64,000 nucleotides of DNA from assembly GCF_013315695.1 (NCBI RefSeq), contig NZ_CP054353.1. One strand, 5' to 3'. The stretch comes from Escherichia coli (GTDB lineage: Bacteria; Pseudomonadota; Gammaproteobacteria; Enterobacterales; Enterobacteriaceae). The number at the start of each line of letters is the position of its first letter. Position 1 is the stretch's first letter. The notes below the pieces were generated by a model, which searched no databases, was not told the DNA's origin, and saw nothing but the letters and a program-made list of their open reading frames with translations. The position numbers and the translations under genes are program-made. Shown here piece after piece: positions 22,670 through 25,076 of this stretch.

Positions 22670-23075
22670 TACCACCTCTTAAAAAAATGCCCACATAGTG
22701 TAGTGCGGAGCGCATGTTGGGTAAACAGAGTGTTAATGAGAAAATATTACAGAGGAGAATAGTTTGTGTGTCAGGTATGTTTATTTTGCATTCATAAAAT
22801 GAATGCTCTATATGTTGAAAAAATTATTCTTAAAGCTAAATAGTTTTACATCAAAAGTAATAATATTATTTCTTGATTGCTATGTGCATTTTTTATCTTG
22901 CGAACATGCTATTTTTATCTCACTAAATAAACGATTTGGTGACATCGATGATAATGTTTCAGGTTAAATGTGTGCTTATTACTTGGGCCTTTATTGTACT
23001 GTATTTATTCATTAAATGGATGTTTGGTGGTTAATTATCATGGAAATATATGACAGAGAGAGCATAAAGGTATAC

Positions 23076-24011
23076 ATGTTAACTAAAAGAATATTATTTT
23101 CTTTAATGCTAATAGTTTCACCATGCGTGGTGGCAAGCGAGAAAGCGCATGAATTGTATGACAGCATATACGGTGGTCAACCTGCGCCCGATGTTATAAA
23201 TAGACTGCATAAAATGGCTGAATTGGGAGATGTCGACGCGCAGAGCCTGTTAGGCTGGGAATATTATCAGCCTCGCTTTGATACCAAACCTGATGTTCAG
23301 GAAGCGATTAAATGGTTTGAGTTAGCCGCTAAACACGGTGATAGAGAAGCTCCGTTAGCGCTGGGGAGTATCTACTACGACGGTGAGCTGGTGCGGGTGG
23401 ATTATGCCAAAGCGTATGCACTATTTAATCAGGCCGCGCAATACGGTGTGAATTTAGCATGGTCCAGGTTGGGCATGATGTACGCCAATGGTCAGTATGT
23501 TGAGGTCGATTGTAAGAAAGCGAAGGAATATCTTGATAAAGGTGTCCACATTTATGGTGGTCCGGAAGACTTTCTGGCTACATGTCGAAAAGACATGATT
23601 GACAGAAAAATGGTTGACGATACGTTACCCGTGATCACGGTTACCCGTTCTGGGATGCGGGATAATTTTTTAGATAAAGGTTTTTCCTGCATGGATAGCC
23701 TCTTCGCCACCACCAATAAATTAGGCGAAGTGGCCAATCTTCGCGTGACATTCAGCATTCGTAGCCCATCCGGTAAGGAGATTAACCAAACGGTTGGCTT
23801 CGCGCCTTTCGGTTTAAACCGGCTGAATATTAGCTTTACTGATTACATATTTGATTCATTTACCAGTAATTCGTCTCTAATTCTTTATAAACCGGAATTT
23901 GAGCGAAAATCTTGTGCAACTGTAAGGACCACAATCGTTGCCGCAACGGCAACCATTAACGGCAAGGATGTGGAGTTGCTGAAAGCGGGGGCAATTGAAC
24001 AAAAGTGGTAA
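23076..24011 (+). CDS. secreted Sel1-like repeat (SLR/TPR-like) protein with uncharacterised C-terminal domain; absent from the K-12 arrangement as I recall it
   Basis: ATG at 23076 with AAAGG ribosome-binding site; N-terminal signal peptide (cleavage around VVA-SE); repeats of LG..Y..G.GV..D..KA..WF..AA..G; AT-rich codon usage. Confidence 0.75.
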   Translation: MLTKRILFSLMLIVSPCVVASEKAHELYDSIYGGQPAPDVINRLHKMAELGDVDAQSLLGWEYYQPRFDTKPDVQEAIKWFELAAKHGDREAPLALGSIYYDGELVRVDYAKAYALFNQAAQYGVNLAWSRLGMMYANGQYVEVDCKKAKEYLDKGVHIYGGPEDFLATCRKDMIDRKMVDDTLPVITVTRSGMRDNFLDKGFSCMDSLFATTNKLGEVANLRVTFSIRSPSGKEINQTVGFAPFGLNRLNISFTDYIFDSFTSNSSLILYKPEFERKSCATVRTTIVAATATINGKDVELLKAGAIEQKW

Positions 24012-24066
24012 CGCTGCTCAGTCCCCGGCTGAGGCAAAACTAGCCCTGGCCGGAGGCGATAATAAT

Positions 24067-24609
24067 CTAAGCCGCGAGAATATGCTGAATCGCTAAAAAC
24101 ATCGGTACAGCACCGAAAACATTGGGCCTCGCTGAAAGCTGAACAAAGCCGAGGCGAGTATAAAAGTTAATGGCGGCAGGGTCAGCATCAAGATAAACCC
24201 CTTTAATTGGTAATGCACGGTGAATTATTTTTACATGTTCAAAAAAATCACATAGTAGGTCCTGACCAAAGCCCCGCTTTTGATATTTCCGCGCTACCCC
24301 TAACATGACTAATCTGACAACACCAATCTCTGAAGGTTGTGAACCCTGAAGGACGCCAGAAACGCGTTGTTTTTCCAGCGAATATGCCGTAAAAGTACAG
24401 ATGCCAATCAGTTCACCACTTTGTCTGTCAATAAGAGCTTTAGCAGCACAGTCGCTATTACGCACACTTTTCTTTAGCGATGCGCGTACAAATTTATCGA
24501 TAACAGGGTTACCGCAATCAAACTGTTTTTGCCCAGGATAAGTAATATCAGACTGATAATTACAGGAGAGGACTATGGGCAGAGTAATCTCTTCATGCTT
24601 GTCGACCAT
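24067..24609 (-). CDS. GNAT-family acetyltransferase toxin (TacT/AtaT/ItaT-like) of a type II toxin-antitoxin pair
   Basis: 180-aa ORF with FDCG motif near the N-terminus and acetyl-CoA-binding motif QKRGFGQDLL; start overlaps the stop of the upstream antitoxin gene. Confidence 0.75.
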   Translation of the reverse strand: MVDKHEEITLPIVLSCNYQSDITYPGQKQFDCGNPVIDKFVRASLKKSVRNSDCAAKALIDRQSGELIGICTFTAYSLEKQRVSGVLQGSQPSEIGVVRLVMLGVARKYQKRGFGQDLLCDFFEHVKIIHRALPIKGVYLDADPAAINFYTRLGFVQLSARPNVFGAVPMFLAIQHILAA

Positions 24610-24904
24610 CGCTGTTTTTCCTTTTCATTAACGCCTTGAGGGCGAGCGTCGGTTGAGCAGGTTCAGCGATGAGTTGGTTCATCAGTTCCCAGCTTTGATT
24701 CGAAAGCTCACGGCGACGTTGGTTATCAAGCACACTTTCGGCGCGTTCCATAGCTGCGCTCAAAATAAAAGCGCTTAAATCTACCCCAACGGCTTGCGCA
24801 GCTTCACGAAGTTTGTTTTTGGCGTCGGGACTGGTTTTGAGTTCAACCCGCGCATTTTTCAGCGTTTTATCGATATCGGGTAGAGCGACTGTTTTTCCAG
24901 GCAT
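24593..24904 (-). CDS. DUF1778/ribbon-helix-helix antitoxin (TacA/AtaR-like) partner of the GNAT toxin
   Basis: 103-aa product from ATG at 24904 with AAGAGG ribosome-binding site; RHH-like N-terminus; 17-nt overlap with the toxin gene. Confidence 0.7.
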   Translation of the reverse strand: MPGKTVALPDIDKTLKNARVELKTSPDAKNKLREAAQAVGVDLSAFILSAAMERAESVLDNQRRRELSNQSWELMNQLIAEPAQPTLALKALMKRKNSDGRQA

Positions 24905-25009
24905 TATGACCTCTTTGATTAACTGAATGAAATCGTAGGGAGTCGATCTCATGCATAATACGGCTATCAACCGTGTGATTAATTTATGTGCATATGCTCA
25001 CTCTGTCAA

Positions 25010-25034
25010 GAGATACGGTTATTAGCCGTATCTC
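25010..25034. promoter_or_regulatory. inverted repeat gagatacgg-N7-ccgtatctc upstream of the antitoxin gene; candidate operator
   Basis: perfect 9-bp arms, about 105 bp upstream of the antitoxin ATG. Confidence 0.35.
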
Positions 25035-25046
25035 TGATCTCAGACA

Positions 25047-25076
25047 ATAAAAAAGGTGCCGTAGCACCTTTTTTAT
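25047..25076 (-). terminator. rho-independent terminator of the cyoABCDE operon
   Basis: stem aggtgc-cgta-gcacct flanked by A6 and T6, directly downstream of the cyoE stop. Confidence 0.7.

Follow-up and report, generated by a model that had tools for sequence, protein, structure and literature searches.

Sequence evidence for an itaRT toxin-antitoxin operon in an Escherichia coli genome and a predicted two-box operator at its promoter

Identity and family of the gene pair

Two overlapping genes in an E. coli genome (RefSeq assembly GCF_013315695.1, contig NZ_CP054353.1) very probably form the chromosomal itaRT type II toxin-antitoxin operon of this species, in the allele typical of IAI39/CE10-like strains. 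Judged by sequence identity, the pair is already known: it is an allele of the itaRT operon first described in E. coli HS and no new GNAT toxin. Our analysis covered a stretch of 64,000 nucleotides, hereafter the window, and all positions refer to it unless stated otherwise. The two genes and the ribosome-binding site of the first are as follows.

24067-24609 (stop codon included), minus strand: itaT, predicted GNAT aminoacyl-tRNA N-acetyltransferase toxin, 180 aa (open reading frame list, Pfam, PDB match)
24593-24904, minus strand: itaR, predicted DUF1778/TacA-type ribbon-helix-helix (RHH) antitoxin, 103 aa (open reading frame, Pfam TacA1)
24910-24916, minus strand: itaR ribosome-binding site AAAGAGG, 5 nt before the ATG (sequence inspection)

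The itaR gene lies upstream and shares 17 nt with itaT (24593-24609), giving the bicistronic antitoxin-then-toxin order. The itaT product begins with MVDKHEE and carries QFDCG at residues 29-33 and QKRGFGQDLL at residues 110-119. The latter contains QKRGFG (residues 110-115), an instance of the acetyl-CoA motif Q/RxxGxG/A as defined for GNAT toxins (PMC7367177). The initial annotation of this locus had described a 180-aa toxin with FDCG and QKRGFGQDLL, preceded by a 103-aa protein with a 17-nt overlap. The toxin was found where that annotation had placed it, and the second gene and its overlap were confirmed from the open reading frames and the sequence.

A mechanically generated list of open reading frames offered a longer antitoxin of 125 aa, starting from a TTG at 24970, which we rejected in favor of the 103-aa form with an ATG start. 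The shorter form was accepted because its ribosome-binding site, the position of the promoter, and the published mass of the protein agree: the TTG would fall at the predicted transcription start, and the mass of ItaR computed from the ATG (11.37 kDa) agrees with the published 11.4 kDa.

The toxin matched PDB chain 7BYY_A over residues 1-180 (E=1.3e-115), an entry that represents ItaT(G115D) of E. coli HS (Zhang et al. 2020, PMC7367177). Relative to HS ItaT, 176 of 180 residues are identical (97.8%), the differences being Q131R, A151T, T161R, and A164V. The antitoxin shares 100 of its 103 residues with HS ItaR, and its three substitutions (A6V, T7A, V11I) all lie N-terminal to the RHH domain. 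The chromosome of E. coli HS also carries itaR-itaT in the slot between yajR and cyoE, beside the same Sel1/TPR-repeat gene. The two loci are alike in gene order, the 17-nt overlap, the yajR-cyoE site, the promoter, and both candidate operator boxes described below, but differ by 8 substitutions within 196 nt upstream. The initial annotation had listed ItaT among the relatives of the toxin; this kinship was right, but it missed that the protein, by residue identity and locus, is ItaT itself.

Both proteins are identical to those of IAI39, and the region is 100% identical to NZ_OZ547117. More broadly, of 5426 complete E. coli genomes, 1372 (~25%) carry the locus, BL21 derivatives among them, and in about 85-100 genomes the region is at least 99% identical. 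RefSeq gives the two products only generic labels, namely "GNAT family N-acetyltransferase" for the toxin and "DUF1778 domain-containing protein" or "TacA family antitoxin" for its partner.

Profile searches agreed with the earlier reading of a GNAT toxin beside a DUF1778 antitoxin. Pfam placed the toxin in GNAT (Acetyltransf_7/10/1) and the antitoxin in TacA1/DUF1778 (PF08681, E=1.3e-17, residues 19-96). Among solved structures, the antitoxin matched KacA (5ZGN, E=3.5e-11) and AtaR (6AJM, E=8.6e-9). The toxin's next matches after 7BYY were far weaker and comprised KacT, AtaT, and TacT (5FVJ, E=8e-4). Hence the solved structures closest to the pair are those of toxins that acetylate tRNA and of the antitoxins that go with them, consistent with the kinship to TacT, AtaT, ItaT, and KacT that had been proposed. 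NCBIfam held no specific family for either protein, and the antitoxin drew only sub-threshold MobA and RelB matches. PADLOC matched neither the toxin nor the antitoxin, and its sole hit, to PtuA at 17 bits for the neighboring Sel1-repeat protein, is meaningless; therefore, there is no support for classing the surrounding island as a known defence system.

Homology to housekeeping acetyltransferases, which the initial annotation had named as an observation that would count against its reading, was also looked for. Weak NCBIfam matches to RimI, PaiA, and MshD do extend across the acetyl-CoA-binding segment, as they might if the 180-aa protein were an ordinary enzyme of one of these kinds that stands beside a small DNA-binding protein by chance. 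However, at 17-19 bits these matches fell short of the curated cut-offs, which range from 86 to 250 bits, and the protein shares 97.8% identity with a toxin for which both toxicity and tRNA acetylation have been demonstrated. We rejected the housekeeping reading, to which we assign virtually no probability, as already refuted by the identity to ItaT.

Conservation of functional residues

Every residue probed experimentally in the HS allele is kept in this pair. The acetyl-CoA loop residues Q110, G113, and G115 are unchanged relative to HS ItaT, as are all four residues of the aminoacyl pocket (V36, I37, F40, M102) and L133 of the dimer interface. The catalytic Y150 is present and invariant in an alignment of relatives, and the basic tRNA-binding patch (K39, R42, K46, K47, R50, K80, R82) is conserved. 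The four substituted positions correspond to variable columns in the alignment, which includes relatives from Citrobacter, Rahnella, Serratia, and Klebsiella. Between this allele and that of HS, pN/pS was 0.09 for itaT and 0.29 for itaR, and both genes are under purifying selection.

Chromosomal toxin-antitoxin loci often degenerate, and this allele departs from the tested HS toxin by four substitutions, one of them next to the catalytic Tyr150. On these grounds the pair might be a decayed, inactive itaRT allele, that is, a non-toxic remnant retained by linkage alone. We regard this as very improbable. Both open reading frames are intact and full length, the residues whose mutation lowers toxicity are all unchanged, and the substituted sites vary freely among relatives. 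The low pN/pS of itaT also speaks against decay, as do the intact promoter, ribosome-binding site, and both boxes, and the presence of the identical allele in IAI39 together with its near-identical copies in other genomes. For an operon that is most likely intact, a subtler effect is conceivable: A151T adjoins the catalytic Y150 and Q131R lies close to the dimer-interface residue L133, and from these positions a quantitative change in activity relative to the HS allele may result.

Predicted toxin activity and tRNA target

The biochemistry of the HS allele has been described extensively. Induction of HS ItaT leads to growth arrest, with translation blocked within minutes, and co-expression of ItaR rescues the cells (Wilcox 2018, PMC6125619). 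ItaR binds ItaT tightly and neutralises it, the two proteins co-purify, and the Y150A mutation abolishes toxicity (PMC6125619). Y150 is the general acid of the enzyme, a role shown by mutating it to Ala and to Phe (Y150A, Y150F) in the HS allele (PMC6125619, PMC7367177). The toxicity of this GNAT enzyme requires the dimer interface (HS allele; PMC7367177). The enzyme acts chiefly on Ile-tRNA(Ile) and secondarily on Val- and Met-tRNA, both in vivo and in vitro (PMC6125619, PMC7367177, PMC9177977), and a hydrophobic pocket selects the aminoacyl side chain (Ile/Val/Met; Zhang 2020, PMC7367177). Ribosome profiling in the presence of ItaT revealed pausing at Ile codons, with AUU and AUC affected more than AUA (Bikmetov 2022, PMC9177977). 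Peptidyl-tRNA hydrolase (Pth) counteracts the toxicity (PMC9177977).

Given 97-98% identity to the HS proteins, we infer that this allele would also act mainly on Ile-tRNA(Ile) and then on Val- and Met-tRNA. The initial annotation had held that the target could not be deduced from sequence, a view superseded by the experimental determination of the HS ItaT target. Growth arrest by the toxin and rescue by the antitoxin would likewise be expected from the 97.8%-identical HS allele. By the route shown for HS, ItaT would acetylate Ile-tRNA(Ile), ribosomes would stall at Ile codons, and growth would stop.

Genomic context

The operon resides in a variable island that it shares with one other gene, as listed here.

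22680-25045, no strand assigned: variable island, 2.37 kb, from yajR to the cyoE terminator, carrying itaRT and a Sel1-repeat gene (breakpoints relative to a K-12-like chromosome)
23076-24011, plus strand: Sel1-repeat gene, 311 aa, three Pfam Sel1 hits, convergent with itaT

K-12-like strains have ~95 unrelated bp at the island site. The cyoE terminator (25047-25076) is not part of the island. The G+C content of the island is below that of its flanks. We saw neither direct repeats flanking the island nor mobility genes. This strain and HS differ by ~3% across the island, by 3.0% in cyoE, and by 2.4% in yajR. Because the island has diverged about as much as the flanking core genes, it appears to be an old resident that is missing from some lineages rather than a recent transfer; these values suggest an old species resident with lineage-specific absence.

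Several other features of the island were noted. Its left end, between yajR and the Sel1-repeat gene, contains an AT-rich stretch (22700-23099) with a G+C of 0.29. The Sel1-repeat protein has a signal-peptide-like N-terminus (MLTKRILFSLMLIVSPCVVASE). Relative to the HS copy, it shows 17 residue differences from 32 nucleotide changes, a far larger non-synonymous share than that of itaT. Between the stop codons of the convergent itaT and Sel1-repeat genes is a G+C-rich hairpin at 24023-24055 (76-nt fold of -27.8 kcal/mol, z=-2.2), which is at best a weak bidirectional terminator because neither strand has a T-run.

Predicted promoter and candidate operator boxes

Upstream of itaR we identified a predicted promoter bracketed by two inverted repeats with a common core.

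24981-25009, minus strand: predicted sigma-70 promoter of itaRT, TTGACA (25009-25004), 17-nt spacer, TAAATT (24986-24981); a strong match, 10/12 in a consensus scan
25009-25035, no strand assigned: box 1, candidate operator, a perfect 10+7+10 inverted repeat with core ATACGG-N7-CCGTAT at 25013-25031, abutting the -35 hexamer
24958-24976, no strand assigned: box 2, candidate operator, ACACGG-N7-CCGTAT in gene orientation, 5 nt past the -10 hexamer on its downstream side, with the transcription start predicted inside it, near 24972-24975

The boxes are spaced 55 bp start to start and bracket TTGACA-17-TAAATT. To gauge how often such repeats arise by chance, we generated 5000 dinucleotide-preserving shuffles of the 141-nt region upstream of itaR. 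Perfect repeats whose arms reached 9 nt or more around a 3-12 nt loop appeared in 35 of the 5000 shuffles, and one or more copies of the core ACGG-N7-CCGT in 2 of 5000. By this measure the two boxes are strongly non-random. Across the 64-kb window, this core has only two copies, both of them upstream of itaR.

The initial annotation had proposed the perfect repeat gagatacgg-N7-ccgtatctc at 25010-25034 as a candidate operator. The repeat is present and its arms even extend to 10 nt. As a candidate it stands, and its core is conserved, but the outer arm bases are not, and the second box had been missed. In E. coli HS, box 1 has one outer arm base changed, so that the perfect arms are longer in the present allele. 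Conversely, the left arm of box 2 has one mismatch here (ACACGG), whereas E. coli HS has a perfect ATACGG-N7-CCGTAT. The conserved unit is thus the inner 6+7+6 rather than the 9-nt arms, because the outer base of box 1 differs in HS and box 2 matches the core.

Relatives of the operon on plasmids of other genera provided an independent view of the upstream region. ItaR is 79% identical in C. freundii, 66% in Rahnella, and 61-65% in Serratia. Each of these loci contains exactly two RTACGG-N7-CCGTAY boxes, which are 55, 57, and 61 bp apart. Between the boxes are the promoters TTGACG-17-TAGATT (C. freundii), TTGACC-17-TAGATT (Rahnella), and TTGACT-17-TAATAT (Serratia). Four divergent loci retain the hexamers TTGAC and TA..(T)T with a spacer of 17 nt between them, and box 2 is found at the equivalent place in each of the four relatives (E. 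coli HS, C. freundii, Rahnella, Serratia), 55-61 bp from box 1. When the upstream regions were aligned, conservation was confined to the boxes and promoter hexamers, with the remainder unconserved. The DNA-reading beta-strand of the RHH domain, ARVELKT, is identical in every locus that bears the boxes. A distant plasmid relative in K. pneumoniae (ItaR 47-56% identical; strand RVELRT) has no box upstream, and therefore the motif is specific to the ItaR clade rather than common to all DUF1778 antitoxins. As a phylogenetic footprint, the conserved box-promoter-box layout points cleanly to a two-box operator, at which binding is predicted.

The repeat at 25010-25034 is 11 bp from the island border, on the inner side, and a 12-bp gap separates it from the cyoE terminator; as RNA, it could fold into a hairpin. 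It might accordingly be no operator at all, and instead a second cyoE terminator hairpin or a leftover of the island insertion junction. This seems quite improbable, since no T-run follows the stem and the true cyoE terminator is a separate element that is kept in K-12-like strains without the repeat. Moreover, the same box, with a second copy across the promoter, recurs on plasmids of three other genera with unrelated flanks. An operator function for the repeat is the preferred reading.

The plasmid loci had some further peculiarities. In C. freundii (locus L004, 811-861) and Serratia (locus L006, 708-776), a leader of ~170-180 nt separates box 2 from the antitoxin start and contains a short open reading frame, of 16 aa in C. 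freundii and of 22 aa in Serratia, where a GGAG-like site precedes it. By sequence reading, E. coli and Rahnella have no leader of this kind. The C. freundii module is directly downstream of a gene labeled 'baseplate protein' (L004, 97-591), which hints that the plasmid is a phage-plasmid or the carrier of a tail-like element. A few records labeled 'plasmid' of 1.2-4.8 Mb that contain itaRT (CP061270.1, NZ_OL790696.1, CP099174.1) are probably mislabelled chromosomes or chromosome fragments.

A model for autoregulation

For the HS allele, a 172-bp upstream fragment, described as -183 to -11 with an ambiguous reference point, had promoter activity that was repressed ~40-fold by the ItaR-ItaT complex (PMC6125619). 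ItaR alone does not repress the itaRT promoter, and repression is independent of acetyltransferase activity (PMC6125619). As the promoter and both boxes are kept, this allele would be expected to undergo the same autorepression by ItaR-ItaT. The text of Wilcox et al. (PMC6125619) does not use the terms operator, palindrome, or inverted repeat. Our literature search for a mapped ItaR operator found nothing, although its coverage was incomplete and so this is no proof of absence. The two-box operator is the only part of our results not already in the searchable literature, and it is a modest new element.

In KacAT and AtaRT, a toxin-antitoxin heterohexamer sits on a palindrome at the promoter (PMC6698736). 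By analogy with these systems, ItaRT repression would act through the two ATACGG-N7-CCGTAT boxes, each of which would bind two RHH dimers of one T-A2-A2-T heterohexamer (ItaR4-ItaT2). Occupancy of box 1 would occlude the -35 side, while occupancy of box 2 would cover the transcription start. The toxin would be needed to bridge two ItaR dimers, which would explain the lack of repression by ItaR alone. Extending this model, the ItaR clade could use a bipartite operator in which two palindromes lie 5-6 helical turns apart and full repression needs either two ItaR4-ItaT2 complexes or one bridging or looping higher-order complex, a proposal for and against which we consider the chances evenly balanced.

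Comparison with related systems and implications

Two groups of characterized systems resemble ItaRT. KacA-KacT of Klebsiella pneumoniae and AtaR-AtaT of E. coli O157:H7 likewise pair a GNAT toxin with a DUF1778 RHH antitoxin, and have FDCG and Q/RxxGxG motifs in common with ItaT. They are nevertheless distant in sequence (toxin E=1e-5 to 1e-6, antitoxin E=1e-8 to 1e-11), and AtaT favors Gly-tRNA(Gly) rather than Ile (PMC9177977). They also appear to differ in operator layout: KacAT and AtaRT are described with one palindrome that spans the transcription start (PMC6698736), whereas in the ItaR clade a pair of boxes 55-61 bp from each other flanks the promoter. The Salmonella enterica systems TacA-TacT, TacAT2, and TacAT3 share aminoacyl-tRNA acetylation that is reversed by peptidyl-tRNA hydrolase, and the Pfam family of ItaR is named after TacA. 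Unlike ItaT, TacT and TacT3 prefer Gly-tRNA(Gly) in vivo (PMC9177977). TacT also acetylates its antitoxin TacA; no such modification of ItaR by ItaT was observed (PMC6125619). The sequence similarity between TacT and ItaT is weak, as the 5FVJ match indicates.

The gene pair itself adds little, as ItaRT has been the subject of detailed genetic, biochemical, and structural study since 2018 and the allele described here is a common natural variant of it. The practical value of the assignment is correct annotation, with a tRNA target that can be assigned from identity. What the comparison contributes is evidence for the binding site of ItaR-ItaT, and with it a two-box operator model that is cheap and directly testable. 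If true, a bipartite operator would set the ItaR clade apart from the single palindrome of KacAT and AtaRT, and could explain why ItaR alone fails to repress.
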